Below are positions 10,072-44,933 of a DNA stretch of 64,000 nt, piece by piece. Both the position numbers and the translations under genes were made by a program. Origin of the DNA: Candidatus Peribacteraceae bacterium. Its GTDB lineage: Bacteria; Patescibacteriota; Gracilibacteria; Peribacterales; Peribacteraceae. How positions within the stretch are numbered: the stretch's first letter is position 1; each line of letters starts with the position of its first letter. The notes under the pieces were generated by a model. It was not told where the DNA came from, did no database searches, and saw only the letters and a list, made by a program, of their open reading frames with translations. The DNA is taken from assembly GCA_028711445.1 (NCBI GenBank), contig JAQTSD010000002.1, positions 27,044 to 91,043 on the forward strand, given 5' to 3'.

Positions 10072-10072
10072 G

Positions 10073-12070: not shown

Positions 12071-12109
12071 TCGCTGCCACGGAGCAGAGAGCCCCATCGT
12101 ACAACTGGA

Positions 12110-12463: not shown

Positions 12464-12499
12464 GGGGAGGGGGGTGGGGGGGGGAGCGTGTGTGGGGCA

Positions 12500-12528: not shown

Positions 12529-12531
12529 CGA

Positions 12532-12560
12532 TTGAGAAATTCCGCAGAATTTGCTATAAT
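12532..12560 (+). promoter_or_regulatory. sigma-70 type promoter (-35 TTGAGA, 17 bp, TGc-TATAAT)
   Basis: TTGAGA at 12532-12537, TG at 12552-12553, TATAAT at 12555-12560, ATG at 12581. Confidence 0.55.
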
Positions 12561-12580
12561 ACAAACACATACACACTTCC

Positions 12581-12838
12581 ATGCCCACCGACTTAAGTCG
12601 CCTCATCAGCCTGGTGAAGGGGAGCAAGCTCCTCATGGATGACGAACGCAAAGAGTGGCTCGCCAAGATGGAAACGATGTCCGAGTCGCAGCTCAAAAAG
12701 CTGTCCGACATTCTCGAGCGTGCGGAGAAAGTGAACTGGACTCAAGAACTGCCCAAGTACGAGGCAGCCGTTCAGGCGGCGGAAACATTCGTACAATCGA
12801 CGCAAGCAACACTCTCTTCCCCTCTCACCAATGCCTGA
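12581..12838 (+). CDS. hypothetical helical protein (first gene of orphan cluster)
   Basis: 85-aa ORF behind a consensus promoter, with an 8-nt overlap with the next ORF. I recognise no family. Confidence 0.5.
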   Translation: MPTDLSRLISLVKGSKLLMDDERKEWLAKMETMSESQLKKLSDILERAEKVNWTQELPKYEAAVQAAETFVQSTQATLSSPLTNA

Positions 12839-14201: not shown

Positions 14202-14228
14202 GGCGGGTTTTACGGAGAACCAATGTAC

Positions 14229-14303
14229 GTCATCCTGAGCTCGTCGAAGGATGATTTACCAAAGTTTGCGGGAGACATTATGGTTCGACGGGCTCACCAT
14301 GAC
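14229..14303. repeat. GTCATCCTGAGC...GTCGAAGG motif with imperfect inverted partner
   Basis: GTCATCCTGAGCTCGTCGAAGG (14229-14250) and TTCGACGGGCTCACCATGAC (14284-14303) form an imperfect palindrome. A related motif occurs at 48187-48209. Confidence 0.4.
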
Positions 14304-14328
14304 GTGTTTTTTGATTCCAAAAGCTTTC

Positions 14329-14357
14329 TTGGCTCGCAGCCCGATTTCTGCTATAAT
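14329..14357 (+). promoter_or_regulatory. sigma-70 type promoter (-35 TTGGCT, 17 bp, TGc-TATAAT)
   Basis: TTGGCT at 14329-14334, TG at 14349-14350, TATAAT at 14352-14357, ATG at 14384. Confidence 0.55.
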
Positions 14358-14383
14358 TTAAGGAAAATTACACACTCTTCTTT

Positions 14384-16411: not shown

Positions 16412-16432
16412 TCATCCAATTTATTTTTCACT

Positions 16433-19400
16433 ATGTCAGAACAAATTCCCTCCCAACAGCCTTCCTACACAGCTCTCGAGCAGATGGCCTCTGTGGCAAT
16501 GGATGAAGCATTGGGCAAGATGTCCATTCAGCAGTTGCAAGCATTGGTTGTGGAAATGAAAGACAGCCCGCGAGTAGCGCAGTCGGTGTTTTCGGCTGTG
16601 AATCGCCGCCTCAGTGCCTTTGAAGAGGTTCAGCGGGGCAAACGAGAGCGAAACGAGACATTGGAACAGGCGCGGCAGCAACTCGAAGATCTCTCCGGAA
16701 AGGTGCATGTTCCGTCAGATGTCCCGACTTCGCCGTCTCCCGGATCGAGTAAGCCAGTCGAGCAACGTACAACGCCAGTTGCTCCTACTGAGACAGTGGC
16801 AGTGGCACCGTCTACTCCTGCACCGACTTCACCAGTGAGTCCGGAATTGCCTCCATCGGCAGTTCCCGCTGTCACTGACACGCCGACGGGACAAGCGGAA
16901 GATCTGCTGCAGGGTCCCGAACGAATCTCACCGGTTGCTCTGGAGATGGCTCGAGATGAAGTGATGGCATCTTTCATAACAGGTTTGCTTCAGATGTATC
17001 CGGATCAGATGGAGAAATCTGGTATCACGGAAAAAGAAGAAGTGAAGGCAGTGACTCGCCTATTACTCTCACGCGCCGATATTCCCAACTGTCGTTTGGG
17101 TTTGCTGTGCAAGGTCCAATCTCTTGCTGACATCGATCGATTGAATATTTTCTCCGCACAGCCGAAGCCGATAGAGGCCGACAAAAAAGCAGCATGGTTC
17201 CTTGCCATGGTGAGTCAGCATCACGAAGCCTTTCTCCGGAAGAAGTTCACCGGTTCCAATGGTCGAAAGCGTTTTGAAGATCTGACAGTCAATGAGTTAA
17301 CGCAATACCTGTGGTATCCTCTCAGGGGTGCCGGGAAACTCATCAAAGGTGTCAAAGACGGTACTCTGGAAGGTGCCGGCATCGAGCAGGTGGCTGAGGC
17401 CATTCTCCCCTCGGCCAAAGAGTCGTTTGAACAGGCTCGGAGCAACATTTCATTGCAGAAGCGGATGTTAGAGTTGAATGCAGATCTACAAGGAAGAGAG
17501 AAGGATTTCCTGACATTCTGCGAGCATTATCGGACGATGACATTGCACGGTCTTACGGCAGATTCTCTCCAGAAAGCTCGCAAATTTTTCCGTTTGGATG
17601 ACATTCCCATATTCATCTCCGCTTTGCACACCCTCTCAGTCAGAATCAAAGATAAGAACAGCCCGATGCGGCAGTATCTGCGCAGGTTCGCCCACGGACG
17701 AAAGCAATTTGAAGAGGTATTGGATGGAAGCTTGGACAAAAGCATCACCATTGGCGATGCCATGGAGATCTATGCCTTGCTGAATAATCTCCGGGAGGAT
17801 GAGTCGGGGGGCTACCCGAAGAGTCTTAAGGACAGTGCCGATGGTACTGCCACGTTCTTCTTGCAGATAAAAATTGCACGCATGATCGGTGCTGCCAATG
17901 ATTGGCAGGGCAATCGCATCAAATATTTTCTATTCAATAACTGCGCGCAGGGCATCGTTTCCGGCGCAGCAAACATTGATCTTCCGGACGGAGCCATTCA
18001 GTATGTTCGTCAGGCGCTCAGTCCTGTTGCGAAAGGGGTATTCAAGCGTTCTGTGGGATGGTTGTGGGATTGGGCTTCGGAAGGTGTGCAAGAAGGTGCA
18101 GCTGTCGCTCTGGAGGCAACTCCTTTGGAGCTGACAGTTGTGGGAGGAGGCACTGCTATGACAGGTGTTGCTGCGTGGAAATTATATCGATATAGATACG
18201 ATTGGCGTTTTCTGCGGGATGTTGCCACTGCGGCGGCTGCACCGGATGCATTCATTCGTCGGCTTGTGCGAGCAGGCCTTTCTCCTGAGTATGCGAGAAG
18301 TATTGTCGGCACGGTGTGGGGATCCGGTGGGGTGTATAATAAACAGTATTATCCTCGCTCATTGAGCGAGCGTGTATCACAACCGGTTGGCCGCGTCACG
18401 ACAAGAGGGAAGGCAGTTCGGCAGATAGAGTATCTCTTGCGAGACAGTGGAAGTGGCATGACCAAGGATCAACTGTGGAAGATCGCGCAACAAATTGATC
18501 CCGTATCGTCTTCCTTGGCGAATCTCCTGCCACAGAAAGTTCGCGCGGCTCGGGAGCTTGGGCAGCGTTGTCAACAGATTGAGAGTATGCCGCGACGTAA
18601 TCCAAAGGAAATAGAGGCATTTCGTAAGGCGAGGAAAGAGTTCGAACAGTCGGCTCGCGCCTTTCAACGTGGCTTCAATGAATATTGCAAGATGGCTCAC
18701 CTGCCCGAAGCCAGGCGCGAAGCGGCGGTGGCAGCCATCGGTCGGCCCTTAATGGATCAAGAGTGGACACAGCTTCAAGAGGCGCATGCGGCCAAGGGTC
18801 TCCAAGAAAAATATCGCATTCTTGTTGGGGATATCGCTGACCTCAAACCGGCAGAGGTGAAGCGCCGCGTCGAATTTGCGGATCGCATGATCCGCACTGG
18901 GTTGGCAGGGGAGTTCGATGAAGCTGCCGATGCAGGTCGTATTCTATGGGAAGCCAGTGCAGAAGGGGCAAACGTTGTGCAAAGCGCGAAGCCACGTTCC
19001 ATTGGTGGTGAAGGAGCCAGTGCCTTGGATGATCAGCCCGAGAGTGTGAAGCAGGCGGCGACGAAGCAGGCTGTTGCGGCAGAGGGTGAGCCGGGTGTCG
19101 CAGCTCGTGCTGCAGACAGCGGTGTGGAAGCGACCGGCGGCGCCACGCGTTCCGCGCGGCAGGCGGAGCAGCAGTGGGCGAAGCTGCTCAATGAACAGCA
19201 GTGGGCGAAGGTCCTCAAGAACTTCAAGAACGTGCGCGTGGAGGATGTCGATGCTCTCCTCAAGCTTGCGCAGGAGACGGGAGCCATTGATCTGGATGCC
19301 AAGACACTCGCTCTCATCCGCCAGAGCGGCAAGGCCAAGGAGATCATCGCCGGTGCCGTGCAGACGACGGACGTGTCGGAGGTGGGACGTGCGCTCAAAG

Positions 19401-29907: not shown

Positions 29908-31326
29908 TTACGTGATCACCTTGTAGCAGGGGTCGTACTCCCCCTCGAGTTTCATCCGTTTCTCTGCGACGAAGCGCTCCAGGAGGATGCTGACCTCTCG
30001 CATGATCTCGGCATCTCCCCGCAGTTCGTAGGGGCCGTTCTTTTGTATGCTCTTCACGCCGTCGTCTGTGACATTTCCATAGACGATAGCAGAGAAGAGG
30101 CGTCGTAGCTGCGCACAGAGTACGTAGGGTGACTGGTTGCGGTGAATTTCGAGCTTACTCACGTTTTCGTGCGTAGGATGGAACGGTTGCTGTACCTCTT
30201 CGGGCAGGTACAGACTGCGGTACCATAGCTCCTGGTCGTCGTGTGCTGCCCGGCAATTCTTCGCCCGCTCGATGGCGGCCATCATATGCTGTGCAACGCG
30301 CTCAGGATCGTTGATGATGATCTCATAAAGCGGCCCGGGAGTTGTTCGGATAGCATCTCGTCCGACTGTCTTCATGATAAAACTGTCGATTGCCTCGAAG
30401 TAGTCGCGTGACGATTCTGGTCCCGTGAGAATAACGGGGTAGACTTGATCGCGATTCTCCTCGTGCAGGAGCATCGAGAGAATCATCTGGATCTCCTCGG
30501 CGGTTCCCGGCCCGCCTGGGAAGATGATACATCCCATCGAGGCACGGATGAACGCTTCGAGGCGCTTCTCGATGTCTGGGAGGATGACGAGTGGTTTCAC
30601 GAAGAGGTTCGGCGGTTCGGAGGTGATGATGCCCGGACAGTTGAAGCCGAACATGCGGGCGTTGGTGATGCGTTCAGCTGCGTAGGCTGCCGCCGCTCCG
30701 CTGAACGATGAGCGCATTATTCCTTGGCCGCCACCAGAGATGAACTCGCAGAAGCGTTCGGCCAGTCGCGTGCATACTGTTTTTCCGTACTTGTATGTTG
30801 TATCCGAGATTGCGTGACCACCGAAGCAGGTGATGCGCGTGAGCTCGTAACGGGCGCGCTCTACGAGCTTGAGGGGATCGGCGACCGGTGGGATGCGCTG
30901 GAAGACACTTGCATGATCGAGGATGCGGAAAACTGCGTCGGTGATCTCGTGTGGACTCTGTGGTTTGCCAATCGCTCGTGCATGGAAGATGAGGTCGATG
31001 GCGGCGGAACAGAGGTGTTCGCGCATCGACTCGTGAATTCTTTGCCCATCAATGAAGGCAGTCAGCGGGCCGTTCTCGAGGATGAATTTGATGCTCCCAC
31101 GCGTCCGGGCGATGGTCACGTTGAAAGTCGGGTAGCGTTCCAGAAGCTCCGTCGTGCTGTCACTATCCGTTCCTGCGTGGAGGATTCCGAGGCAGCAACG
31201 TCGTAATGTCTCGTGGTGTCCGTTCCCCACACTTGTGAGATACTGAATATCCTCCTCAGGAAGGTAGGAGAGACGCTGGTCCAGCGCGTCCACCTCCATC
31301 TGCCGGAATGTGTGGAATTGTTCCAT
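29908..31326 (-). CDS. ppnN: nucleotide 5'-monophosphate nucleosidase PpnN-like (LOG family with flanking domains)
   Basis: 472 aa. Central LOG motifs SGGGQGIM and FPGGPGTAEEI, plus the long N- and C-terminal extensions typical of PpnN/YgdH. Confidence 0.8.
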   Translation of the reverse strand: MEQFHTFRQMEVDALDQRLSYLPEEDIQYLTSVGNGHHETLRRCCLGILHAGTDSDSTTELLERYPTFNVTIARTRGSIKFILENGPLTAFIDGQRIHESMREHLCSAAIDLIFHARAIGKPQSPHEITDAVFRILDHASVFQRIPPVADPLKLVERARYELTRITCFGGHAISDTTYKYGKTVCTRLAERFCEFISGGGQGIMRSSFSGAAAAYAAERITNARMFGFNCPGIITSEPPNLFVKPLVILPDIEKRLEAFIRASMGCIIFPGGPGTAEEIQMILSMLLHEENRDQVYPVILTGPESSRDYFEAIDSFIMKTVGRDAIRTTPGPLYEIIINDPERVAQHMMAAIERAKNCRAAHDDQELWYRSLYLPEEVQQPFHPTHENVSKLEIHRNQSPYVLCAQLRRLFSAIVYGNVTDDGVKSIQKNGPYELRGDAEIMREVSILLERFVAEKRMKLEGEYDPCYKVIT

Positions 31327-31378
31327 GGGGGGAATTCGTGGCTTTACAAGCTATATTTTTTGGTGTGAAGTGTCAATC

Positions 31379-33120
<1,742 letters not shown>

Positions 33121-33137
33121 TGCTACACTTACCTCGC

Positions 33138-34076
33138 ATGACTCTTTCTCAAACCATCCTCGGTGTCCGGTTTTCCAACCCCACCGTTCTTGCTTCGGGT
33201 ATCTGGGGGATCACGGCAGCGAGTTGGCGTGCGGCGGCGAGGGTCGGAGCAGGAGGAGTGACGACGAAATCCCTCTGGTTGAAGGAGCATCGCGGCCACG
33301 TCAGTCCGGTGATCATCGCCACGGACCATTGGACACTCAATGCCGTCGGAGTGCCGGATGCCGGCATCGAGAAGGCACGCGAGGAGATCGGGGACTACCA
33401 GAGAGATCCACCTGTTCCTCTGATTGCGAACATCATTGCCGACACGGTCGAAAATTACGGCAAGACCGCTTCGGCGATCGCGAAGCTCAAACCGGAATTT
33501 CTTGAGGTGAATATCAGCTGCCCGAATGTGGAGGATGAGTTGGGCAAGCCCTTCGCCTGTTCTGCGCACGCTGCCGCGGCTGTCACGAAAGCCGTGAAGG
33601 CTGTCAGCGGGAAGATCCCCGTCTTCATTAAGCTCTCGCCGAATGTCGACTCCATCGCCGCGATCGCACAGTCCTGCGCCGCCGCCGGCGCGGACGGCTT
33701 CACCGTCATCAATACCGTCGGGCCGGGCATGGCGATCGACTTGAAGAGCCGCATGCCCATCCTCACCAACCGTGTCGGCGGTCTCTCTGGTCCGGCCATC
33801 AAGCCGATCGCGGTCCGGTGCATTGCGGACGTCTACCGTGCGACGGACGGCGAGCTCCCGATCATCGGGACGGGAGGCGTGATGACCGGCGAAGACGCGC
33901 TGGAACTCATGCTTGCGGGTGCGAGTCTCATCGGTATCGGATCTGCCGTCGGCTATCGAGGTCACAAGGTTTTTTCACTTGTCTGTGCGGAGATGGAGAC
34001 ATGGTGTAAGCGGGAGGGGGTCAGGAAGATCGGGGAGATGGTGGGGGCATTGAAAGATGTACAACATAAGGCATGA
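33138..34076 (+). CDS. pyrD: dihydroorotate dehydrogenase B, catalytic subunit
   Basis: NPTVLASG...GGVTTKS...LNAVGVPDAG...EVNISCPN...FIKLSPN...INTVGPGMAIDL...GGLSGPAIKPIAVR...IIGTGGV. The start (33120 or 33138) is uncertain. Confidence 0.9.
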   Translation: MTLSQTILGVRFSNPTVLASGIWGITAASWRAAARVGAGGVTTKSLWLKEHRGHVSPVIIATDHWTLNAVGVPDAGIEKAREEIGDYQRDPPVPLIANIIADTVENYGKTASAIAKLKPEFLEVNISCPNVEDELGKPFACSAHAAAAVTKAVKAVSGKIPVFIKLSPNVDSIAAIAQSCAAAGADGFTVINTVGPGMAIDLKSRMPILTNRVGGLSGPAIKPIAVRCIADVYRATDGELPIIGTGGVMTGEDALELMLAGASLIGIGSAVGYRGHKVFSLVCAEMETWCKREGVRKIGEMVGALKDVQHKA

Positions 34077-34903
34077 GTACAACTATTCCATTACAGGCGC
34101 GGCTTCCGAAGACTTATAAAATCACTTCCATGAAGCGTGAGACGGAGCAGGTGACATCATGTACATTTGACGTATCGCTTGGATCGCGGCCCGGACAGTT
34201 TGTGATGCTGTGGCTTCCCGGGGTGGAGGAGATCCCCATGAGCGTGGCGAATGATGACGGAAAGCAACTCACAGTTACATTCTTCGCTGTCGGAGAGACT
34301 ACCAAGAAGCTGGCGGGGTTGAAGAAAGGTGATCTGGTCGGACTGCGCGGTCCCTTTGGGACATTCTACGAATGGAAACCTCGTCAGAAGCTCGCACTTG
34401 TCGCGGGTGGTTATGGTGCTGCTCCAATGTATTTCACGGCGAGAGAAGCGGCGAAAGATGGTTGTACACTTTTCATCTTCGTTGGTGCACGAAGTAAAGA
34501 GCATCTCCTCTACCTTTCGGCGTTTAAGAAATTGCCACGTACGACCTTGTATATTTCAACCGATGATGGCTCACAGGGGTTTAAAGGTTTCAATGTGCAA
34601 TTGCTGGAGAAGATGCTCAAAGAGGGCAAGCAAGCCCTTACAATCGACCAGATCTTCGCCTGCGGACCCGAACGGATGCTTAAGGCCGTCTCAGATCTCT
34701 CCTTCAGGAAAAAGATTCTCAGCCAACTCTCGTTGGAGCGTTACATGAAGTGCGGTTTCGGCCTGTGCGGCAACTGCGTCGTCGACCCGCTCGGTATCCG
34801 CCTCTGTATCGATGGACCAGTTGTGAAGAATGATCTTGCGCGCAAGATCACGGAATTCGGGAAGTATCATCGGGATGAACTGGGGAGAAAGAGAGTGTTG
34901 TAG
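34073..34903 (+). CDS. pyrK: dihydroorotate dehydrogenase electron transfer subunit
   Basis: FAD/NAD-binding fold (RPGQFVMLWLPG...EIPMSV; LVAGGYGAAPM). C-terminal 2Fe-2S ligands MKCGFGLCGNCVVD. ATGA overlap with pyrD. Confidence 0.9.
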   Translation: MSTTIPLQARLPKTYKITSMKRETEQVTSCTFDVSLGSRPGQFVMLWLPGVEEIPMSVANDDGKQLTVTFFAVGETTKKLAGLKKGDLVGLRGPFGTFYEWKPRQKLALVAGGYGAAPMYFTAREAAKDGCTLFIFVGARSKEHLLYLSAFKKLPRTTLYISTDDGSQGFKGFNVQLLEKMLKEGKQALTIDQIFACGPERMLKAVSDLSFRKKILSQLSLERYMKCGFGLCGNCVVDPLGIRLCIDGPVVKNDLARKITEFGKYHRDELGRKRVL

Positions 34904-34933: not shown

Positions 34934-36073
34934 TCACGTGCGAATTTTTCGATCCAGAGCAAGAATGATCTCGATCACCTGCTCGACTCCTTTGAGATAC
35001 GTCTTCTTTTCCATCTTCTCTTCAAGCGAATGTGTAGCAAAGCCATTACTTGCGCCGAGTGTGACGGTTGGAATGCCGCGTGCAAGGGAAACATCACCGT
35101 CTGTATTGCCAATCTTGAAAAACGGTCTGATGCCGAGGGATCGTTGCACCTTCCTTGCGGTAGTGCAGAGGAGGTGATTCTTTGGCATACTTGCTGCTTT
35201 TGTCATGGAGAGCATCGTGAGTTTGAACGTCACGCCGCCTTTCTTGTGCGTGCGGAGCACTCTGTGAAAAAGTTGTACGAGAGCGTTGATATTCTTCTGC
35301 CTCTCCGCGCGGAATTCTAGAAGCATCTTCGCTTCGCCGGGAATGGCATTGATACTCTTCCCTCCCTGAATTGCTGTCACATTGTACGTCGTATCCTTCG
35401 GTCGAGTGATCTTCGACAGATCGTGGATGATGGAGGAAAGGATGACGACGGCATTCGGCTCGCCGAAGTTGCGCCAGCTGTGCGCCCCTTTCTGCTTGGC
35501 AATCACCGAGAAATCTGCGCGGTACTGTCCCACACACGCATTCGTCACACGTCCAATATCGTGGCTCTCGATATTTACCACATGAGAGATAATTTTTTCA
35601 TATTTTGTGATGATTCTCTTCATGCCCCGTTTGGCACCCAGCCCCTCTTCCCCGACCGTGAAGACAACGAGATAGTTCTGCTCGAGAGGAATCTTCACAT
35701 CTCGCACAAATTTCAGAAATGTCAGGAGTGCAGTCACTCCCGCAGCATTATCACAGATACCGTGAGCGTGCAGAAATGTCGCGTCCTCTCGTACTCTGAT
35801 GGGTGACGGAGTATCGCAAGCCGTGTCTGCATGAGCACAGAGGAGAATGAACTTCTTCTGCTTGGGATGTGTGATGAGAAAGCCGATTGCATTGCCTTCA
35901 GCGTCTCTATGTACGTTCTTTAAGCCGAAGGAAGAAAGGATCTTCATGAGGTATCGGGTCCTCCTCTCTTCATGAAAAGTGGGAGACGGTATCTGGCAGA
36001 TAGTTTTCAGAAGTCGAAAAACATCTCCCCGGGATTCCCGGAGGAATGCACGGGTGGATGGGACGATTGTCAT
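34934..36073 (-). CDS. M20 family metallopeptidase
   Basis: LCAHADTA (metal-binding His/Asp), ICDNAAGV, VFTVGEEGLGAKRG (catalytic Glu-Glu), and a C-terminal GNTDG...GIPTVTLG. Confidence 0.8.
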   Translation of the reverse strand: MTIVPSTRAFLRESRGDVFRLLKTICQIPSPTFHEERRTRYLMKILSSFGLKNVHRDAEGNAIGFLITHPKQKKFILLCAHADTACDTPSPIRVREDATFLHAHGICDNAAGVTALLTFLKFVRDVKIPLEQNYLVVFTVGEEGLGAKRGMKRIITKYEKIISHVVNIESHDIGRVTNACVGQYRADFSVIAKQKGAHSWRNFGEPNAVVILSSIIHDLSKITRPKDTTYNVTAIQGGKSINAIPGEAKMLLEFRAERQKNINALVQLFHRVLRTHKKGGVTFKLTMLSMTKAASMPKNHLLCTTARKVQRSLGIRPFFKIGNTDGDVSLARGIPTVTLGASNGFATHSLEEKMEKKTYLKGVEQVIEIILALDRKIRT

Positions 36074-36253
36074 CGGTGAAACTCTATGCGATGAGAAGAG
36101 AGATGGTCAAGGTAAGAACTGATCAAAGACGAAGTTCTCAGAAAGAAACCAGTGTTTTTTCGAGACAAATTAGGTTTGACATTCGGCATTGGTGGTATCA
36201 AGATGCCTCTTTCCCGGCGCACCACCATTATTATGTTATCTTTCCGAAGAAAG

Positions 36254-37132
36254 ATGGCTGGGCTAACGATTTCCGATCTCCTCAAGCGGAAAGGTCCTGT
36301 CGAGGTGATCGGTTGCCACAGCCCTCTTTCGGGGAAGATTGCCGAGTCTGTCGGGTTTCAGGCACTCTGGCTCAGTAGCCTGGAACTCTCCGCTCTCAAC
36401 GGGGTTCCGGATGCGAATTTTCTCACCATGTCCGAAAATTTGGATATGGTGCGCAACGTTTGCCAAGCAGTATCCATCCCTGTCATTGCGGATTGCGACA
36501 GCGGCTACGGGAACGAGTTGAATGTCTATCGTATGGTACAGCTCTACGAACAGGCGGGTGTGAGTGGGATATGTCTTGAAGATAACGTGTATCCCAAAAA
36601 ATGCAGCTTCTACGAAACGAGTGCGGATGAAGTAGTCACTCCTGAAGAGCATGCCAGACGTATCGCTGCGGCAGTGCAAGCTCGTCACAATGGCCTCTTC
36701 ATCATTGCAAGAACCGAGGCGTTCATTCGTAACCTTGGTCTCAAGGAGGCATTGCATCGCGCATCCGTGTATGAGAAGGCGGGGGCCGACGCAATCTTGG
36801 TACACTCCAAGAAGAAAACAGACGAAGATCTCGTTGAGTTCGTAAAGGCTTGGAATGGCAAGGTTCCTCTTGTTTGCGTGCCGACGACCTATAATCAGTA
36901 TTCCTCCTCCGAGCTCTTCGAGCGCGGCTACAAGATCATCATTTTCGCCAATCATGGTCTCCGCGCCAGCATTAATGCGATGAAAGAGGCATTTGCGCTT
37001 ATAAAGGAGAAGCATCGTACCAAAGATCTCGACGATCAGATCGCATCACTACAAGATGTCTTCGAACTCACAGATGTCGACGCAATGCAGCAACTCATTG
37101 CATCTTTCAACCGCTCTCATGACGTACGCTGA
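36254..37132 (+). CDS. PEP mutase / isocitrate lyase superfamily enzyme, PEP-mutase-like with non-canonical active-site motif
   Basis: Collinear with PEP mutase as I recall it: GFQALWLSSLELSA..GVPDAN, DCDSGYGN, ILVHSKKKTDEDLVEFVKAW, FANHGLRAS. The signature reads EDNVYPKKCS instead of EDKxxxxxNS. Confidence 0.75.
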   Translation: MAGLTISDLLKRKGPVEVIGCHSPLSGKIAESVGFQALWLSSLELSALNGVPDANFLTMSENLDMVRNVCQAVSIPVIADCDSGYGNELNVYRMVQLYEQAGVSGICLEDNVYPKKCSFYETSADEVVTPEEHARRIAAAVQARHNGLFIIARTEAFIRNLGLKEALHRASVYEKAGADAILVHSKKKTDEDLVEFVKAWNGKVPLVCVPTTYNQYSSSELFERGYKIIIFANHGLRASINAMKEAFALIKEKHRTKDLDDQIASLQDVFELTDVDAMQQLIASFNRSHDVR

Positions 37133-37508
37133 ATGTAAATCTCAGGGTTTTGATTTTATCGTCGGCGTTCCCTGTTCATCGCTCAAGCAGTTCATCGAGG
37201 ATCTGCAGAGAGACGAACCCGGGCGATACATCCCTGTTCAACGTGAAGACACGGCGGTCGCTCTCGCAGTCGGCGCTTTCTTTGCTGGCAAGAAACCCCT
37301 CGTATTCCTCCAAAACAGCGGTCTCGGACATATCGTGAACATCGTTTCCTCCCTTTTGATTCCCTACGAGATTCCCATCCACTTTCTCGTCACCATGCGC
37401 GAGATGCCTTTCGAACATACGCACATGTACAAGATCACGAAGCCACTTCTCTCCCTTCTTGGCATTGAATCTCGCACGTTTCTCTTCGATGCCAGCTCCC
37501 ATGTTTGA
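37119..37508 (+). CDS. TPP-dependent 2-oxoacid (phosphonopyruvate/sulfopyruvate-type) decarboxylase, alpha subunit
   Basis: FDFIVGVPCSSLKQFI...PVQREDTAVALAVGAFFAGKKPLVFLQNSGLG is a ComD/Ppd N-terminal (PYR) domain pattern. Overlaps the stop of the mutase-like gene. Confidence 0.75.
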   Translation: MTYAECKSQGFDFIVGVPCSSLKQFIEDLQRDEPGRYIPVQREDTAVALAVGAFFAGKKPLVFLQNSGLGHIVNIVSSLLIPYEIPIHFLVTMREMPFEHTHMYKITKPLLSLLGIESRTFLFDASSHV

Positions 37509-37974
37509 AATGACGCGATTGCAGGCAGTTCGTTCGGTGCTCGATACACTGACTGATGAGCTGCTTATTGTCACAACCGGCTTTCTCTCACGCGATGTCT
37601 TTCATCTGCGGGATCGCAAAGAAAATTTTTACATGTGCGGTTCCATGGGGAATGCGTATCCCATCGGTATGGGGATTGCACTGGGCAGTCCGGAGCGGAC
37701 CATTACAGTCCTTTCCGGCGATGGAGCGGCACTCATGAGTCTTGGAAGTTTGGTGCTCGGAAACAGTCTCAAGTTGCCAAATCTGTGGCATATCATCATT
37801 GATAACAAGAAGTATGCTTCGACGGGGGGACAGCCGACGTGCAGTGATGGCATCGACTTTACACAGTTCCACAATACGCGGGTCATTCATGTGGATCATG
37901 ATGAGCCTGCATCCCCCCGCATCACACTTGATCCTGTCGAGATTGCTCGCCGGTTCCGTTTCTGCATCCGATGA
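37501..37974 (+). CDS. TPP-dependent 2-oxoacid decarboxylase, beta subunit
   Basis: GSMGNAYPIGMGIAL...VLSGDGAALMSLGSLV...IIIDNKKYASTGGQ is the TPP-binding GDG-x(24-27)-N motif (ComE/Ppd C-terminal half). ATGTTTGA overlap with the alpha subunit. Confidence 0.8.
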   Translation: MFEMTRLQAVRSVLDTLTDELLIVTTGFLSRDVFHLRDRKENFYMCGSMGNAYPIGMGIALGSPERTITVLSGDGAALMSLGSLVLGNSLKLPNLWHIIIDNKKYASTGGQPTCSDGIDFTQFHNTRVIHVDHDEPASPRITLDPVEIARRFRFCIR

Positions 37975-39392
37975 CCAGGGGAACACTCATCAGTGGCAAG
38001 TGGACGGTCTCGTTGCGGGCACGCGAAGTCATGAACCCGTTTTCGGGGGAGAAAGTGGGGGAAGTACCCTTACTTGAGCGAGAGCAAGTCATCCATGCCA
38101 TCGAAGATGCGGCTACATTCCACTCGTCGCTTACTCCATATGAGCGCTTCGTGATTCTGCGGAATGCGGCGAATATGGTTATGGAGAGAAAAGATGAAAT
38201 CGCGTGCCTCATTTCTTCGGAATCAGGACTGGCGTTGAAAGATACACGACATGAGGTGGAGAGAACGCATAATGTATTACTTCTGAGTGCCGAAGAAGCC
38301 AAGCGACAGCGGGGAAGTGTGTATCAATCGGATGTTGTTCCCCAGACGACCGGACGGGTGGCATTCACCATCCGGGAACCTGCGGGTCTGATTCTTGCAA
38401 TCACGCCGTTCAATCATCCCATGAATCAAGTGGCACATAAGATCGGGCCGGCGATTGCAATGAACAATACTGTTCTATTGAAGCCGTCGCTGAAGACGCC
38501 ACTCTCTGCCATCCGTCTTACAGAGATTCTCCTCGAAGCGGGTCTTCCACCGCGTATGCTGTCTGTTCTGACGCTCGACGTGATGGAACATGCACGCTTT
38601 CTTCTCTCACATCCTGCGATCGACATGGTGTGTTTTACCGGTAGTACGGAAAGCGGAGAGAAAGTACTCAAGGAAACCGGTGTGAAGAAAACTCTTATGG
38701 AACTGGGAGGTAATGACGTATGTATTCTCTGTGAAGATGCAGATGTTTCATCTCTCATCGATATGATCCTCATTGGTGGTCTGGGCAATTCCGGTCAACG
38801 GTGTACGTCGATCAAGAGACTGCTCTGCCACCGTTCCATCGCCGATGTTGTTGCGACTTCTTTGGGAGAAGCCGTCTCCCGTTTATGTGCCGGCGATCCC
38901 TTGCGGGAGGACACGGACATCGGGACGGTGATCGACGAAGAGGCGGCGATGACGATTGAACGCCGCATCCAGCAAGCATGCGCCATGGGGGCGAAGCTCC
39001 TCATAGGAGGGAGAAGAAAAGGTGCGCTCATCGAACCGACTCTGGTGGATTACATTCGGCCCGATATGGAATTGGTGCAGAAGGAGACGTTTGGGCCCGT
39101 TATCCCTCTCATCCGTTTCGATTCCGATGACGAGGCAATCAGGATGTGCAACGACACTCCTTTCGGATTGCAATCGGGCGTATGTACGAATGATCTTCGC
39201 AGAGCGATGCGTTATGTGCAGGGCATCCGCGCCGGCGCGGTCCATGTCAATCAGGCCCCGGGCTATCGTGTCGAATCCTGGCCGTTTGGCGGGATCAAGA
39301 AGAGCGGGTTTGGAAAAGAAGGTGTCGAACGAGCGTGTCTTGAAATGAGTACGGAGAAGCTTATATCCCTTCCTTTTCCTCCTTTTGCATGA
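37971..39392 (+). CDS. NAD(P)-dependent aldehyde dehydrogenase
   Basis: ITPFNHP, FTGSTESG, and MELGGND (catalytic Glu). GNSGQRCTS contains the catalytic Cys. EETFGPV. ATGA overlap with the upstream gene. Confidence 0.9.
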   Translation: MTRGTLISGKWTVSLRAREVMNPFSGEKVGEVPLLEREQVIHAIEDAATFHSSLTPYERFVILRNAANMVMERKDEIACLISSESGLALKDTRHEVERTHNVLLLSAEEAKRQRGSVYQSDVVPQTTGRVAFTIREPAGLILAITPFNHPMNQVAHKIGPAIAMNNTVLLKPSLKTPLSAIRLTEILLEAGLPPRMLSVLTLDVMEHARFLLSHPAIDMVCFTGSTESGEKVLKETGVKKTLMELGGNDVCILCEDADVSSLIDMILIGGLGNSGQRCTSIKRLLCHRSIADVVATSLGEAVSRLCAGDPLREDTDIGTVIDEEAAMTIERRIQQACAMGAKLLIGGRRKGALIEPTLVDYIRPDMELVQKETFGPVIPLIRFDSDDEAIRMCNDTPFGLQSGVCTNDLRRAMRYVQGIRAGAVHVNQAPGYRVESWPFGGIKKSGFGKEGVERACLEMSTEKLISLPFPPFA

Positions 39393-40714
39393 AGACCGTT
39401 CAGGAAATCATTAGGGCTGGGCGAGATGTGGAGGACCGCCTCGGTTGCGCACTCTTTCCAGATCTGCGTCTCGAGGATCTCGGTTGCCTTTCCATCGAGG
39501 ATTTACGACGTTGCTACCACAGAGAGATCGAGAGCATCATTACTCTTCACGGTTTGCTTCAATCGGGGATGGCACCGGCAGATCTTTCTTCCGTTGTGCA
39601 AACGATCAGCATCCACGGGAGGGAGCGCCCCGGAAGCCGGAGGGAAATCCTGGGTTTTCCCGTGAAAGCGATTGGTTCGAACATTCGCAGACAGGATATC
39701 GATTGGAATCAATTCACTTGTGAGCAATCCGGCGTGTGCCGCGAAGGGGATATCGTTATCGCCCGCGCTCTCTCGAGCAGGGGATCGATCAATCAACTGG
39801 AAGATCAAGCCGGCCGTGAAGTGCGGATCTTCGAAGGAGATCACTTCATGACGGTAATGGGGAATCGCCACTCCGGGACATCCGAGTATGGAGAACTGAC
39901 GGATGGGCAAATGGAGTTGCAGCCAGATACCGAAGTGGATCTTCTCTGCCATGGAGGTATTCTTGGTCATGGCATATGTATTCCGCGCAGCAGAGCAGTG
40001 CAGACCTTCTTCAAGGTGCACGTGGCTGCAATTCTCAGAAATGGCGGCCGCAATCTCAATCTTCTGGATCTGTATCCGGCGTGGGATAAGGAGATGCTGC
40101 CGTCCGCACCTATCATCTTCAACTGCGGCACATCGGCTGAGATCGGAAAGACGACATCTTCCTCCTCGATTATCCGAGCGCTGAAAAGAATGGGGAAGCG
40201 TGTCGGAGCGGCGAAGCTGGCCGGGACCGGCCGATATCGCGATTTACTTTCGATGCGCGATGCCGGTGCCGACTTGTACTTCGACTTCCCGGATGTGGGA
40301 TTGCCGTCAACATACACAAGTCCGTCCCGGTCATACCCGGCTGCTGTTACGCTTCTCAATAAGTTGAATCGTGGGAAGGTCGACGTGGTCGTTGCCGAAA
40401 TGGGGGGCGATATCATCGAGGCAAACATTCCTTCCGTTCTTCAGTCTCCGGAAATGATGCGTTATGCGAATGGCATCGTGCATTCATCCGCCGATATTCT
40501 TGGCATTCTCGGCTCATTGCAGCGGTATCGCGACTTTGGGGTGCAAGTGCCTGTCATGCTCACACTTCCGAAAGACCGCAACGATGCAGGAACGCGGGAG
40601 CGGCTTCAACAAGAGCATCTTTCGGCCTTCGATGTCATGAATATGCGGGAGTGCGATCAGGTGGTGGGAGCCCTCCTTCGCTGCCGCGAGGGGGAATCGA
40701 TATTTCCTGTATAA
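39389..40714 (+). CDS. hypothetical protein with C-terminal P-loop-like domain (GTSAEIGKTT)
   Basis: 441 aa. Walker-A-like NCGTSAEIGKTTSS, followed by VVVAEMGGD. This resembles the dethiobiotin-synthase/DUF1611-type nucleotide-binding fold. Family not recognised with certainty. Confidence 0.55.
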   Translation: MKTVQEIIRAGRDVEDRLGCALFPDLRLEDLGCLSIEDLRRCYHREIESIITLHGLLQSGMAPADLSSVVQTISIHGRERPGSRREILGFPVKAIGSNIRRQDIDWNQFTCEQSGVCREGDIVIARALSSRGSINQLEDQAGREVRIFEGDHFMTVMGNRHSGTSEYGELTDGQMELQPDTEVDLLCHGGILGHGICIPRSRAVQTFFKVHVAAILRNGGRNLNLLDLYPAWDKEMLPSAPIIFNCGTSAEIGKTTSSSSIIRALKRMGKRVGAAKLAGTGRYRDLLSMRDAGADLYFDFPDVGLPSTYTSPSRSYPAAVTLLNKLNRGKVDVVVAEMGGDIIEANIPSVLQSPEMMRYANGIVHSSADILGILGSLQRYRDFGVQVPVMLTLPKDRNDAGTRERLQQEHLSAFDVMNMRECDQVVGALLRCREGESIFPV

Positions 40715-40745: not shown

Positions 40746-41768
40746 ATGGAATTGAGAGGTTCTGACATTCTCACAATGGATCAGTTCGATCGGGAAGATC
40801 TCCGTCGTATTTTCGATACGGCTGCAGAGATGGAGGTGTATGCATCGAGACAAAAAATGACACGCGTTCTCGAGGGGGCAGTCTTGGCGAATCTGTTCTT
40901 CAGTTCGAGCACGCGTTCGCGCATCAGTTTTGGCTCAGCATTCAATCGTCTCGGTGGAGCAGTACGCGATACGACGAGCATTGACGAGTCGTCCATTGCC
41001 AAAGGGGAATCTCTCGAAGCGACTGCCCGTGTAGTCAGTGGTTACTCTGATGCGATTGTTCTGCGTTACCCGGAGGAAGATGCAGCCAAAATGGTTGCCG
41101 ATGCATCACCGCTGCCCGTGATCAACGGAGGAGACGGATCCAACGAGCACCCCACACAAGGGCTCCTCGATATCTTCACTATCCTGAAGGAGCGCAAGAT
41201 GTCTCTTGACGATCTTGACGGTCTCGTCGTTGCCGTTGGAGGAGATCTGAAGTACGGGCGTGCTGCCCACTCGATTGTCAAAGGACTCTCCATTTTTCGT
41301 AACATTTGCTACAAACTCATTGCCACGGATGAACTGCAAATGCCTGACAAGATTGTGGAACTCCTTCGCAACAGGGGGCATCAGGTCTTGCAGACCAGCG
41401 ATCTTTCTGAGGGGATCAAAGATGTGGACATCGTTTACATGACACGCAATCAAGAGGACAGGATGCCTCGTGAACTCGCTACGCACTTGCGCGGGAAGAT
41501 CTTCCTCGATCGTCGCACTTATGAGCGCTACGCCCGTCCCGATACCACGATCATGCACCCCCTCCCGATTGACATTCGGCCGGGTGCACAGGAAATCAAG
41601 CCTGATCTCTACGATCACCCGAACTTCGCGGTCTATCGTCAAACGGATAACGGTATGCCGGTGCGGATGTCGATTTATGTACATCTCCTCGGGGTCGTTG
41701 ACAGAGTACATGACACGGTCAGAGATGCGTTTTGGTTCCGACCGGATCGTACGGATTCCCATAGATGA
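40746..41768 (+). CDS. pyrB: aspartate carbamoyltransferase catalytic chain family protein
   Basis: LANLFFSSSTRSRISF (STRTR variant), AIVLRYP, NGGDGSNEHPTQ, GDLKYGRAAHS, YMTRNQEDR, HPLP...YRQTDNGMPVRMSI. Confidence 0.8.
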   Translation: MELRGSDILTMDQFDREDLRRIFDTAAEMEVYASRQKMTRVLEGAVLANLFFSSSTRSRISFGSAFNRLGGAVRDTTSIDESSIAKGESLEATARVVSGYSDAIVLRYPEEDAAKMVADASPLPVINGGDGSNEHPTQGLLDIFTILKERKMSLDDLDGLVVAVGGDLKYGRAAHSIVKGLSIFRNICYKLIATDELQMPDKIVELLRNRGHQVLQTSDLSEGIKDVDIVYMTRNQEDRMPRELATHLRGKIFLDRRTYERYARPDTTIMHPLPIDIRPGAQEIKPDLYDHPNFAVYRQTDNGMPVRMSIYVHLLGVVDRVHDTVRDAFWFRPDRTDSHR

Positions 41769-42232
41769 TTATGCATTTTGATGTTCCCGGTGTCGGCCCA
41801 ATAGATATTGATACGATTCTTCTCGATCTGAATGGGACGCTTCGTGATAAAAAAAAGTTTTTGGTGCCGGGTGTGAACACGCGCATAGCAAGGTTGCGGG
41901 AACTGGTACGTCTCATCCTTCTCTCAGGCGATACGCGGGGGGATGCAGCCGTTCTGGCAGAAGAACTTGGCATCGAATTTATCCGTACTCCGACGGCAGC
42001 AGATAAAGGTGCGATTGTTGATCGGCTTGGGGCAGAACATTGTGCCGGGATTGGGAACGGTCTCATCGATCTTACTATGGTTGAAAGGGCTCGTATTGGT
42101 ATTGCCGTTCTCCAAGGCGAGGGGGCTCACATGAAAACATTGCATGCTGCCGATATCGTCGTGACCAGTGTGAACGACGCACTCGATTTTTTTCTCGATG
42201 AGAAGAGCTTGATCGCCACTTTACGGGCATAG
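41765..42232 (+). CDS. HAD-superfamily hydrolase, soluble P-type-ATPase-like (COG4087-type)
   Basis: ILLDLNGTL (DxxGT variant), LLSGDTRG, AGIGNGLID...GIAVL. 155 aa. ATGA overlap with the ATCase stop. Confidence 0.7.
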   Translation: MIMHFDVPGVGPIDIDTILLDLNGTLRDKKKFLVPGVNTRIARLRELVRLILLSGDTRGDAAVLAEELGIEFIRTPTAADKGAIVDRLGAEHCAGIGNGLIDLTMVERARIGIAVLQGEGAHMKTLHAADIVVTSVNDALDFFLDEKSLIATLRA

Positions 42233-42602: not shown

Positions 42603-44933
42603 ATGAATTCTCCCCCGTCTCCTTCCGATGCAGTATCCGGCACCACTGCAGAGCACGTTTATGCCACAGCACGGAAACTTCTCGGGGAGGATCGTTTATT
42701 CGTGATCGTTTCCAATCGCGAACCCTACGAACATGTATCCAAAGGGGGACGCACTGTCGCCCAGCGCACCGTGGGAGGTGTAGTGAGCGCTTTGGATCCG
42801 CTCATGGAACGTTTGGGTGGAACATGGATTGCCTGGGGGAGCGGCGCAGCTGATCGCAGTATGGTCGATACCACGGACGGCGTGTTGCTTCCTCCGGGGA
42901 AGGAGACATATAGGCTCCGGCGGATATGGATGAGCGAAGAGGAAGTGGAACACTTCTATCGCGGTCACGTAAATCAGACATTGTGGCCTCTGTGTCACTC
43001 CGAAACAGAGAAAGTGCGCTTCCGCCGGCAAGAATGGGATGTATATCAGACCATCAATCGCCGGTTCGCAGAGGCTGCTGCGGAAGAATTGAAAGAGAAG
43101 AAAGGTGTAGTTTGGTTTCATGATTACCAGTTTGCCACTGCACCGGGAATGCTGCGGGATCTCCTCCCGGAAGTTACTATTCTTCAGTTCTGGCACATTC
43201 CCTGGCCTCCGTGGGAGATCTTCCGACGCCACCCGCAGCGTCGAGCTCTTCTCGAGGGGCTCCTCGGTTGCGATCTCATCGGTATGCATATCGATCAGTA
43301 TTGTGACAACTTCCTGCAGTGTGTCGAACGCGAATTACATTTGCCCGTAGATTGGGAGAAGGGGCATGTCCTCGTCGGGAACCGGATGGTGCGGATTCGG
43401 GCGCTGCCGATCAGTATCGACGCGCAGCATTGGGCGGATCTCGCCGCATCGGTTCCTGTGCAGCGCGCACTGGAAAAATATCGTACTCTCTATGCGCCTG
43501 CGGGTCGGGCAATTGGTATCGGCGTGGAACGAGCCGACTACACGAAGGGGATTCTATTGCGTTTGCATGCGCTTGAGTTGCTCTTCGAACAATACCCGCA
43601 GTGGCGGGGGACCTTCACCTTTCTGCAGGTCACTCCATCCTCTCGCAGTGCCATCCGCGCCTATGCGCTCTTTCAGCAGGAGATGATCCGTGTTGTCCGC
43701 GCGATCAACGCGCGCTATCAGACGGACACGTGGAAACCTATCGTGCACATTCGCACTGCCATTCCGGAGAAAGACCTCGCCGCTCTGTACCGTCTCGCGT
43801 CGATTGGCGTCGTGAGCGTACGGCAGGACGGCATGAATCTCGTTGCCAAGGAGTTCGTCGCTTGCCGTACCCACGAGGATGGCGCCCTCGTCTTGAGCGA
43901 ATTTGCGGGGGTCTCGGAGGAGCTTCATGAGGCCATTGCTATCAATCCGTATGATGTAGAAGGATTTGCGTATGCGCTGCATCAGGGTCTCAGTATGCCT
44001 GTTGCGGAACAACATACCCACATGCAGCGTCTACGCGAGCATCTCTTCAGTCATACCATCTACGATTGGGTGCAGGATCTCCTCGAAGAAGTCGCGGCAG
44101 TACAACAGGCGCAGGAAGGAGCCGGTTCCGCAGAGCCGCTGCTTGATCATCTCGATGATCTGCAGGAACGTATGGCGAAGCATCGGCATTTCGAGCTTTT
44201 CTGTGATTATGATGGTGTGCTGACATCCATTGCTCCACGTCCTCGTGAAGCGCGCTTAAATGAGCGCGTGCGTGATCTCCTCTGCAAGTTACGTGACAGC
44301 GCGTCCGTGCATGTGAGCATCATCAGCGGACGCATGCTTACGGATATAGTGGAACTGGTGTCCATTGAGCGTCTCACTTATGCGGGTAATCACGGACTGG
44401 AAATCAGCGGACCGCGCGTGAAGAGGATTCATCCGGATGTCGAACGTGTACACGGTGTACTCAAAACCCTCTATGACACATTACGTTCGACGATGCGCCC
44501 TTTCCCCGGTGTCCTTGTCGAGGACAAGGAGCTGGGTATCGCAGTGCACTTTCGTCTCGTGCCGACCGAACAAAGGCAGGACGTCGCAAATGTGTTCTAT
44601 GCGCAGGTGCAGCAAGCAGTCGACGAGGGATTACTGCGTGTGACGACAGGAAAGTTCGTCCTCGAGGTTCGGCCGAATGTCGCATGGGATAAGGGAACTG
44701 CTGCACTATGGCTCCTTGAGCAGCTTCATGGAAGCGACTGGCGTGGTCGCGTGCTGCCGTTCTATCTCGGGGATGATGAGACGGATGAAGATGCGTTCCT
44801 CGCGTTGCTTGGCAGCGGGGTGACGATTCGAGTGGGGGATCGGCGCACAGAGCCCACGGCTGCGCAGTATGTTGTGAGGGATACGGGAGACGTAACGGTG
44901 TTTCTCGAGTGGTTGGCGCAAACGGTACGGTAG
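42603..44933 (+). CDS. otsAB: bifunctional trehalose-6-phosphate synthase / trehalose-phosphatase (OtsA-OtsB fusion)
   Basis: GT20 region (VSNREPY...GGVVSAL...WFHDYQF...WHIPWP...GVERADYTKGI...RQDGMNLVAKEF) and a C-terminal HAD phosphatase (LFCDYDGVL...YLGDDETDEDAF). A TGc-TATGCT box is upstream. Confidence 0.88.
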   Translation: MNSPPSPSDAVSGTTAEHVYATARKLLGEDRLFVIVSNREPYEHVSKGGRTVAQRTVGGVVSALDPLMERLGGTWIAWGSGAADRSMVDTTDGVLLPPGKETYRLRRIWMSEEEVEHFYRGHVNQTLWPLCHSETEKVRFRRQEWDVYQTINRRFAEAAAEELKEKKGVVWFHDYQFATAPGMLRDLLPEVTILQFWHIPWPPWEIFRRHPQRRALLEGLLGCDLIGMHIDQYCDNFLQCVERELHLPVDWEKGHVLVGNRMVRIRALPISIDAQHWADLAASVPVQRALEKYRTLYAPAGRAIGIGVERADYTKGILLRLHALELLFEQYPQWRGTFTFLQVTPSSRSAIRAYALFQQEMIRVVRAINARYQTDTWKPIVHIRTAIPEKDLAALYRLASIGVVSVRQDGMNLVAKEFVACRTHEDGALVLSEFAGVSEELHEAIAINPYDVEGFAYALHQGLSMPVAEQHTHMQRLREHLFSHTIYDWVQDLLEEVAAVQQAQEGAGSAEPLLDHLDDLQERMAKHRHFELFCDYDGVLTSIAPRPREARLNERVRDLLCKLRDSASVHVSIISGRMLTDIVELVSIERLTYAGNHGLEISGPRVKRIHPDVERVHGVLKTLYDTLRSTMRPFPGVLVEDKELGIAVHFRLVPTEQRQDVANVFYAQVQQAVDEGLLRVTTGKFVLEVRPNVAWDKGTAALWLLEQLHGSDWRGRVLPFYLGDDETDEDAFLALLGSGVTIRVGDRRTEPTAAQYVVRDTGDVTVFLEWLAQTVR

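Follow-up and report, generated by a model that had tools for sequence, protein, structure and literature searches.

Almost every natural compound with a C-P bond is reached through phosphoenolpyruvate (PEP) mutase, PepM. A PepM-like gene of a Candidatus Peribacteraceae bacterium raises the question of whether an enzyme that departs from the motif by which PepM is recognised can still be a PEP mutase. The gene lies in a 64,000-nucleotide stretch of contig JAQTSD010000002.1 (the window, to which positions refer unless another locus is named). A sequence-only reading of this stretch had left an either/or, a new PepM variant or an enzyme with lyase or decarboxylase chemistry. The evidence presented here makes it probable that the gene encodes a functional Mg2+-dependent PEP mutase of a large, previously unrecognised subfamily with a non-canonical loop. 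Catalytic activity and products are what we infer from the observed sequence, residue conservation, fold and gene neighbourhoods. The two features on which the question turns are:

36254..37132, + strand: PepM-like gene (P0001, 292 aa) of the PepM/phosphonopyruvate hydrolase (PPH) branch of the isocitrate-lyase (ICL) superfamily, probable PEP mutase; Pfam PEP_mutase 3e-57.
36578..36607, + strand: variant gating-loop motif EDNVYPKKCS, corresponding to E114-S123 of Mytilus PepM with Lys116 replaced by Asn and Asn122 by Cys, from alignments to 1m1b, 5unc, 2dua and 1zlp.

The gene occupies an open reading frame (ORF) at 36152..37132, with a probable true start at 36254 (MAGLTISDLL), as in the database copy P0001. 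A direct read of 36578-36607 on the + strand, GAA GAT AAC GTG TAT CCC AAA AAA TGC AGC, gives EDNVYPKKCS as had been claimed, and the peptides quoted alongside it, ILVHSKKKTDEDLVEFVKAW and FANHGLRAS, are both present in the same ORF. The register was set by HMMER alignments to solved structures, which are gap-free through the loop, so that the mis-registration once named as a possible refutation does not apply. In Mytilus PepM (1m1b), whose numbering is used throughout, the loop reads E114-D115-K116-L-F-P-K120-T-N122-S123; the aligned loops are EDKRFPKVNS in Streptomyces PepM (5unc), EDKTFPKDTS in PPH (2dua) and EDQVWPKKCGH in petal death protein (PDP, 1zlp). The window protein has Asn at position 116, where PepM has Lys, and Cys at 122, where PepM has Asn, with Lys120 and Ser123 kept. 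The same gap-free alignments thus uphold the two substitutions reported earlier. In P0001 numbering, Asn111 stands at the Lys116 position and Cys117 at the Asn122 position.

Beyond these two positions the active site is that of PepM. The window protein keeps the equivalents of W44, S46, D58, D85, D87, E114, D115, K120, S123, R159, H190 and R239, among them the whole Mg2+ site (D58, D85, D87, E114) and the substrate and phosphoryl binders W44, S46, K120, S123, R159 and H190. In P0001 the metal ligands are D53, D80, D82 and E109, the phosphoryl binders R153 and H184, and the kept loop residues K115 and S118. A PEP mutase is favoured because all PepM catalytic residues other than 116 and 122 are retained and the lyase hallmarks are absent. 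The protein scores below the cut-off of every family model of the superfamily that was compared: TIGR02320 (PepM) 272.6 bits against 319.55, TIGR02321 (PPH) 247.8 against 374.4, TIGR02317 (prpB) 177.3 against 354.4, TIGR02319 (carboxy-PEP mutase, CPEP phosphonomutase) 119.2 against 420.05, and TIGR01346 (ICL) 32.4 against 275.9. Identity is ~41–44% to PepM/Ppm (EC 5.4.2.9; Mytilus 1M1B/1PYM, Streptomyces 5UNC) and ~42–47% to PPH/PalA (Variovorax 2DUA), which shares the fold and the metal site.

A structure prediction had been proposed as a check. The AlphaFold2 (AF2) model, built on 57 clade members, has an overall predicted local distance difference test score (pLDDT) of 92.3, with only ~73–74 in the gating loop. 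Its best Foldseek match is Streptomyces PepM 5unc, at a template modelling (TM) score of 0.93 and a root-mean-square deviation of 1.6, followed by PPH and Mytilus PepM, with the lyases last. The prediction therefore places the fold nearest PepM, which further favours a PEP mutase.

The loop itself nevertheless recalls another chemistry. The likeness of PKKC to the lyase K(K/R)C loop, pointed out in the sequence-only reading, is in register: in the alignment to PDP 1zlp, the window Cys coincides with the lyase catalytic Cys. Cys122 might then be a general acid/base as in isocitrate, methylisocitrate and 2-alkylmalate lyases, and the enzyme would cleave or form a C-C bond, or decarboxylate or hydrolyse oxaloacetate, handing a 2-oxo acid to a thiamine pyrophosphate (TPP)-dependent decarboxylase. 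Position 116 is non-Lys, as in the lyases (Gln), and the clade shares with PDP a His, in the sequence EEH, at a position where canonical PepM has Phe. However, the window protein does not match the lyase loop K-[KR]-C-G-H, reading K-K-C-S-F in the alignment, with Ser-Phe rather than Gly-His after the Cys, and at position 190 it has His (LVHSKK) where the lyases have Glu (FVEAPA in PDP). The prpB model gives 177 bits against 273 for PepM, the lyases rank below both PepM and PPH in the fold search, identity to 2-methylisocitrate lyase, isocitrate lyase and PDP is ~25–31%, and their gene neighbourhoods are unrelated. Together with the evidence from close relatives given below, this makes a lyase of this kind very improbable.

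The variant loop belongs to a large clade and is, on the sequences compared, not a peculiarity of the window gene, a point that the sequence-only reading had missed. The best 120 relatives (out of 5.8 billion proteins, with identities as low as 45%) all carry EDN/S..PK.(C/N/S)(S/A). Position 116 is always Asn or Ser in them, and position 122 is Cys in 113, Asn in 4 and Ser in 1 or similar; the clade consensus is E-D-N-x-(F/Y)-P-K-(R/K)-C-(S/A)-F-Y. Because all 120 share the change at 116 and mostly have Cys at 122, the variant is, as judged from these relatives, neither a chance event nor a sequencing error. When 1.84 billion representatives at 50% identity were searched without a filter, 8213 matches at E<=1e-3 were obtained, of which the best 150, with references, were classed by their residues at 116 and 122 (NC for Asn/Cys, KN for the canonical pair, KT for the PPH type). 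These comprise 99 KN, 26 NC and 15 NN sequences, with scattered NH, NS, SN, SS, SC, QN, KS and KT. All classes keep the full set of residues listed above, from W44 to R239, whereas the lyase outgroup differs at 123 and 124 (Gly-His after Cys) and at 190 (Glu).

The two substitutions are linked. In 260 aligned PepM-family sequences, Cys122 occurs with Lys116 in 0/95 and without Lys116 in 129/165, counts that are not phylogenetically independent, and the avoidance of Lys116 together with Cys122 again counts in favour of the lyase interpretation. In the same alignment the EDN group has an invariant Tyr125, where canonical PepM has Ile, Leu or Val, and His (EEH) at the Mytilus F138 position, the state shared with PDP. 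The NC clade thus differs from PepM in Asn116, Cys122, Tyr125 and His at Phe138. Since Cys122 goes with loss of Lys116 and with a PDP-like His at the F138 position, the NC loop looks like a partly lyase-like, perhaps ancestral, loop set on a PepM-type active site.

Close relatives of the clade indicate that the Cys is replaceable. P0082 and P0116, with the loop EDNIFPKRNS, share 83% identity with P0046, a protein of the NC type, and a protein of the NS type shares 73% with one of the NC type. The Asn122 variant was seen in independent assemblies, the codon change from Cys to Asn requires two nucleotide changes, and P0082 lies in an aminotransferase/ATP-grasp/major facilitator superfamily (MFS)/gamma-glutamyltranspeptidase module that is shared with NC members. 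Such interchange within one module fits Cys122 and Asn122 doing the same job. A Cys that is the indispensable acid/base of another reaction is hard to reconcile with a Cys/Asn swap between 83%-identical proteins, as replacement by Asn or Ser in relatives of the same module would be intolerable for it. On His190, the missing Gly-His, the fold, the gene context and this swap, the new-PepM-variant half of the earlier either/or is the one favoured, and nothing was found to support lyase or decarboxylase chemistry.

Gene neighbourhoods support the same conclusion. With one genome scanned for each GTDB species, 80 loci were obtained, and the ORFs in them were labelled by BLAST against the proteins of Pfam-annotated loci. 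A phosphonopyruvate decarboxylase (Ppd)-type enzyme lies within 5 kb in 41/56 NC-type loci, and 5/7 canonical loci have a Ppd. The NC-type loci also have an NTP_transf_3 (PntC-like) domain, fused or adjacent, in 53/56, a 2-aminoethylphosphonate (AEP) transaminase (AEPT)-type class-V aminotransferase in 25/56 and a CDP-alcohol phosphatidyltransferase in 26/56. A second PepM-family gene within 8 kb was found in 0/56. These partners (Ppd, AEPT, PntC and a PhnY-like aldehyde dehydrogenase, ALDH) and the C-terminal NTP_transf_3 fusions are those of PepM/Ppm, and as enzymes of phosphonate pathways, together with the CDP-OH transferase, they also speak against a lyase. A PEP mutase is favoured because the NC gene is the only PepM-family gene in these standard phosphonate clusters (56 loci). 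The C-terminal PF12804 fusions of the NC clade are of a type that is reported to be typical of genuine Ppm (Rice et al. 2019, PMC6697681); the mirrored domain architecture is an argument for a mutase.

Two Pfam-annotated loci illustrate the point. Nitrospira sp. RBC093 (L046, 1621-9650) encodes PepM(NC)::NTP_transf_3, a split Ppd, Aminotran_5, an NTP transferase, CDP-OH_P_transf and LPG_synthase_TM. The cluster of Sorangium cellulosum So ce56 (NC_010162, at ~10.19 Mb; L033, 7983-12697, with the PepM orthologue at 7983-9647) encodes PepM(NC)::NTP_transf_3, a split Ppd, NTP_transf_3 and CDP-OH_P_transf. The sole mutase of both clusters is of the Cys type. By analogy of gene content, this layout is that of AEP-phosphonolipid clusters. 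As complete phosphonolipid-type clusters have only a Cys-type mutase, their gene content implies that nitrite oxidisers and myxobacteria synthesise phosphonolipids, a trait so far unrecognised. A different arrangement, the module mentioned above, combines a non-canonical PepM (Cys122 or Asn122) with a class I/II aminotransferase, an ATP-grasp ligase, an MFS transporter and a gamma-glutamyltranspeptidase. From its genes it looks like a phosphonoalanine-peptide cluster, one that motif-filtered surveys would miss. It was located as follows:

L004, L005, L006 and L007 (~10001-16550 each) and L013 (1716-8176): five-gene module, in Planctomycetota, Acidobacteriota and other phyla.

The same scan bears on the possibility that the window protein is a PPH-like catabolic enzyme that cleaves the P-C bond, with Cys in place of the PPH Thr. 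PPH departs from PepM chiefly at position 122, from N to T (PMC7916636), so a change at this very position is a shared trait, and the best PDB sequence match of the window protein by E-value is PPH 2dua (5.8e-69; PepM 5unc, 1.9e-68). One distant member (L008) adjoins a LysR regulator and a solute-binding protein. However, PPH has K116 and T122 (EDKTFPKDTSLR), and its loop D-T-S-L-R does not match the K-C-S-F-Y of the window protein, where S-F-Y follows Cys122 and S-L-R follows the PPH Thr; the score is also below the TIGR02321 cut-off. PPH-type (KT, EDK..PK[DV]TS) loci have Ppd in 0/13, an NTP transferase in 0/13 and an aminotransferase in 2/13, being solitary or beside a PalB-type aminotransferase and never beside Ppd or PntC, as opposed to 41/56 and 53/56 for Ppd and NTP transferase near NC-type genes. 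The window gene is followed by a decarboxylase, unlike the PPH catabolic context of PalB without Ppd, and a hydrolase would be futile if its gene preceded, and was coupled in translation to, that of a phosphonopyruvate decarboxylase. We regard a hydrolase as highly improbable. As a separate observation, PPH-like genes with EDK(S/T)FPK(V/D)TS are common and mostly solitary (L074-L092, chiefly metagenome-assembled genomes (MAGs) of Alphaproteobacteria), and their Val-Thr-Ser loop is unlike the Asp-Thr-Ser loop of the characterised Variovorax enzyme.

In the window, the PepM-like gene heads an operon, with one divergent gene upstream:

34934..36073, − strand: M20-family metallohydrolase, divergent, a module member (PF01546 and PF07687; same place in L001, L002 and the contig of P0004, and within the operon in L011).
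37119..37508, + strand: TPP-dependent decarboxylase alpha subunit (N-terminal TPP domain), Ppd/ComD-like (PF02776; start deduced from the L001 orthologue, 83% identical).
37501..37974, + strand: TPP-dependent decarboxylase beta subunit (C-terminal TPP domain), Ppd/ComE-like (PF02775; start from the L001 alignment).
37971..39392, + strand: aldehyde dehydrogenase nearest PhnY (TIGR03250, 513.9 bits; best PDB match 4i3t).
39389..40714, + strand: DUF1611/CbiA-like SIMIBI P-loop protein, 441 aa, without a Pfam or NCBIfam match of its own, a recurrent PepM partner in candidate phyla radiation (CPR) bacteria.
40746..41768, + strand: aspartate carbamoyltransferase (ATCase) catalytic chain, co-transcribed with the cluster (TIGR00670, 274 bits against a cut-off of 236.95).
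41765..42232, + strand: small hydrolase of the haloacid dehalogenase (HAD) family, ~152–155 aa (PF00702; kept in L001, L002 and the P0004 contig).

The genes are tightly packed. The PepM-like gene overlaps the alpha gene by 14 nt, alpha overlaps beta by 8 nt, and beta/ALDH and ALDH/P-loop overlap by 4 nt each; a 31-nt gap separates the P-loop gene from the ATCase gene, which overlaps the HAD gene by 4 nt. The Ppd/ComDE-type decarboxylase noted in the sequence-only reading is therefore a split, two-subunit form directly downstream, and its alpha gene provides the genomic coupling to an equilibrium-pulling enzyme (Ppd or similar) by overlapping the PepM-like gene. The ALDH scores best with TIGR03250 among 44 ALDH families (513.9 bits, below the cut-off of 635.65), compared with 381.7 bits for the sulfoacetaldehyde dehydrogenase SafD, and its best PDB match is PhnY 4i3t (391 bits, against 310 for GAPN). 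It keeps R111, H162, R293, C294 (the catalytic Cys) and R450 of the 4i3t chain. Residues 111, 162, 293 and 450 of that chain are what we take to be the PhnY phosphonate binders Arg108, His159, Arg290 and Arg447.

The order of the genes suggests a pathway. The variant mutase would convert PEP to 3-phosphonopyruvate through the kept PepM machinery, and the coupled split decarboxylase would convert phosphonopyruvate to phosphonoacetaldehyde and CO2, pulling the unfavourable mutase equilibrium forward. The PhnY-like ALDH would then form phosphonoacetate, which the putative DUF1611-like P-loop enzyme and the M20 and HAD hydrolases may tailor or conjugate further. A phosphonoacetate branch of phosphonate biosynthesis that runs through Ppm, Ppd and PhnY is already recognised (Li and Horsman 2022, PMC8942020), and the gene trio and the order of mutase, decarboxylase and PhnY-like ALDH are shared with it. 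Unlike in that branch, the window mutase is non-canonical, the decarboxylase is split in two and the host is probably a CPR bacterium, Peregrinibacteria-like, while the DUF1611-like P-loop protein, ATCase, small HAD protein and M20 hydrolase are outside the described tailoring sets.

An eight-gene module recurs in four independent contigs, the window and three others, and is taken as a unit because the same eight genes are found there with different flanking genes. PepM identity to the three other contigs, one of which is a Candidatus Peregrinibacteria MAG, is 64–77%. The P-loop protein alone has no Pfam or NCBIfam match, and 34/43 members of its family, found mainly in CPR bacteria, match DUF1611. 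Its AF2 model has a pLDDT of 93.7, and both a PDB profile search and Foldseek return only generic SIMIBI NTPases (signal recognition particle GTPases, HypB, dethiobiotin synthetase). Homologues of it cluster with Ppd and canonical PepM in other CPR genomes, with the PepM motifs EDKVFPKRNS, EDKRGLKQNS and EDKTGLKKNS:

L009/L010, 7664-9337: P-loop homologue; here canonical PepM is fused to the P-loop protein (P0140), adjoining a TauE permease, an ALDH fragment and ATCase.
L011 (Gottesmanbacteria), 8001-9113: P-loop homologue.
L012 (Kaiserbacteria), 8001-9365: P-loop homologue.

As the P-loop homologues cluster with canonical PepM elsewhere, homologous CPR clusters use canonical or NC-type PepM in the same slot. 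A PEP mutase is favoured by this shared slot together with the Cys122/Asn122 swap, and also by the tight overlaps with the decarboxylase, the ALDH closest to PhnY and the recurrence of the module in four contigs.

The operon also bears on two further explanations. The enzyme could be a mutase acting on a PEP analogue, or making a non-phosphonate beta-anionic pyruvate such as sulfopyruvate, so that the clusters would lead to sulfonates or other heteroatom analogues. This would suit the decarboxylase, whose ComDE scores (88, 125.8) are close to its Ppd scores (91.8, 127.8 bits), the TauE/SafE-family permeases in the related clusters L009 and L012, and the joint alteration of two 'diagnostic' phosphoryl-loop residues. 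On the other hand, no known metabolite (e.g. enol sulfate) fits as the substrate, the ALDH scores 514 bits as PhnY against 382 as SafD, the phosphoryl binders R159 and H190 are unaltered, homologous clusters have canonical PepM in this slot and the Asn122 variant occurs in the same module as the Cys form. An analogue mutase is accordingly very unlikely. An arsenic analogy, the conversion of arsenoenolpyruvate to arsonopyruvate, was considered and rejected; the bisenarsan cluster has an enzyme of the phosphoglycerate-mutase family, not of the ICL superfamily. It could also be argued that loss of two diagnostic-motif residues and a score under the equivalog cut-off mark a catalytically dead or merely structural paralogue. 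This is scarcely credible for a protein whose variant loop and metal and substrate ligands are strictly kept across hundreds of sequences from many phyla, and which is the sole PepM-family gene of its clusters and translationally coupled to a decarboxylase.

Several observations weigh against a working PEP mutase and keep the assignment at probable. The protein falls below the TIGR02320 cut-off and lacks the literature motif E-D-K-x5-N-S (Lys116, Asn122), and no description or biochemical characterisation of an EDN...CS PepM was found in the literature. N122T is the usual explanation of hydrolysis by PPH versus isomerisation, Asn122 being held to be catalytically important (PMC7916636); Cys at 122 could change the reaction outcome, because this is exactly where PPH departs from PepM. 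The gene context fits phosphonopyruvate and a close beta-anionic 2-oxo acid analogue alike, and the decarboxylase subunits score about equally as Ppd and as the sulfopyruvate decarboxylase ComDE: alpha has 91.8 bits with TIGR03297 (Ppd) and 88 with ComD, both below cut-off, and beta has 127.8 with TIGR03297 and 125.8 with TIGR03846 (ComE). Finally, the ICL-superfamily phylogeny proposed earlier was run as a neighbour-joining tree (100 bootstraps, loop columns excluded, PDP root), which gives no support to monophyly of the NC clade or to its nesting within proven PepMs, backbone bootstraps being near 0.

The ATCase gene of the operon deserves separate comment. Its product keeps every catalytic motif in comparison with 1ml4 and 2rgw (STRSR, KGES, R105, HPTQ, YGR, TRNQ, HPLP), and a second ATCase copy was not found in the window. 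The idea of a new acyl-transferase was rejected, as all ATCase motifs are kept and the protein belongs to the ordinary ~340-aa ATCase family. ATCase is present in all four module copies and also in L009. Of the module genes compared between the window and L001, the ATCase gene has diverged most, at 59% identity, with 70% for the M20 hydrolase and 77–83% for the other operon genes. Phosphonoacetate is an analogue of carbamoyl phosphate, and phosphonoacetyl-aspartate (PALA) is a classic ATCase inhibitor. The association of ATCase with phosphonate genes may be functional because both compounds are classic ATCase ligands. We know PALA so far only as a synthetic transition-state analogue, and no report of natural PALA was found in the literature.

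The group of the P-loop protein counts ATP-dependent C-N ligases, e.g. dethiobiotin synthetase, among its members. It is conceivable, though unlikely, that the CPR operon makes a phosphonoacetate-derived ATCase antimetabolite such as N-phosphonoacetyl-L-aspartate. In this scheme the P-loop enzyme would form the amide, the fast-diverging ATCase would be a copy kept for self-resistance or as the target, and maturation or immunity would fall to the M20 and HAD proteins. A PALA-like product is attractive because ATCase is co-transcribed, phosphonoacetate mimics carbamoyl phosphate and the P-loop group holds C-N ligases. Most matches of the small HAD protein are to the phosphorylation domain of P-type ATPases and not to the typical HAD phosphatases that stand alone. 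Immediately before the cluster, at 29908-34903, lie a PpnN-like nucleotide nucleosidase (− strand), pyrG, pyrD and pyrK, and downstream, at 42603-44933, a fused trehalose-6-phosphate synthase/phosphatase. The pyrimidine genes flank the cluster in this genome only, not in the sister contigs.

The clade has escaped notice under the usual search practice. The phosphonate surveys consulted, from 2019 to December 2025, demand a perfect EDKX5NS and discard the rest as presumed non-Ppm, including that of Rice et al. 2019 (PMC6697681), in which 22 discarded sequences were nonetheless fused to other domains. Among database names, JGI labels some members 'phosphoenolpyruvate phosphomutase' and NCBI assigns a family-level ICL/PEP mutase. 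By the literature motif the window protein is not a canonical PepM, though it most likely works like one. In C. difficile, 2-aminoethylphosphonate is found on flagellin even though the genome is pepM-negative in a motif-based survey (PMC8861647), a case which shows that organisms scored as motif-negative may nonetheless have phosphonates. The 'PepM homolog' of C. difficile (PMC8861647) was set aside as not mechanistically relevant.

The pepM gene, filtered by EDKX5NS, is the marker for genomic and metagenomic censuses of phosphonate producers and for phosphonate natural-product mining. If the EDN...C-S clade is competent, a considerable number of producers escape such censuses. Within the GTDB sample, these would include many Nitrospira, which are key nitrifiers, Binatia and Polyangiales (Sorangium cellulosum So ce56, Minicystis rosea), as well as Acidobacteriota, Planctomycetota, Omnitrophota and CPR bacteria, most with complete phosphonolipid-type clusters. 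A natural Cys122 tied to the loss of Lys116, in a loop that appears to be retained from lyases, would inform how C-C lyases gave rise to phosphoryl-transfer enzymes in this superfamily. The literature yielded no account of CPR bacteria that synthesise phosphonates; the window operon, as read from its genes, points to phosphonate metabolism in these reduced-genome bacteria, with uncharacterised tailoring enzymes.

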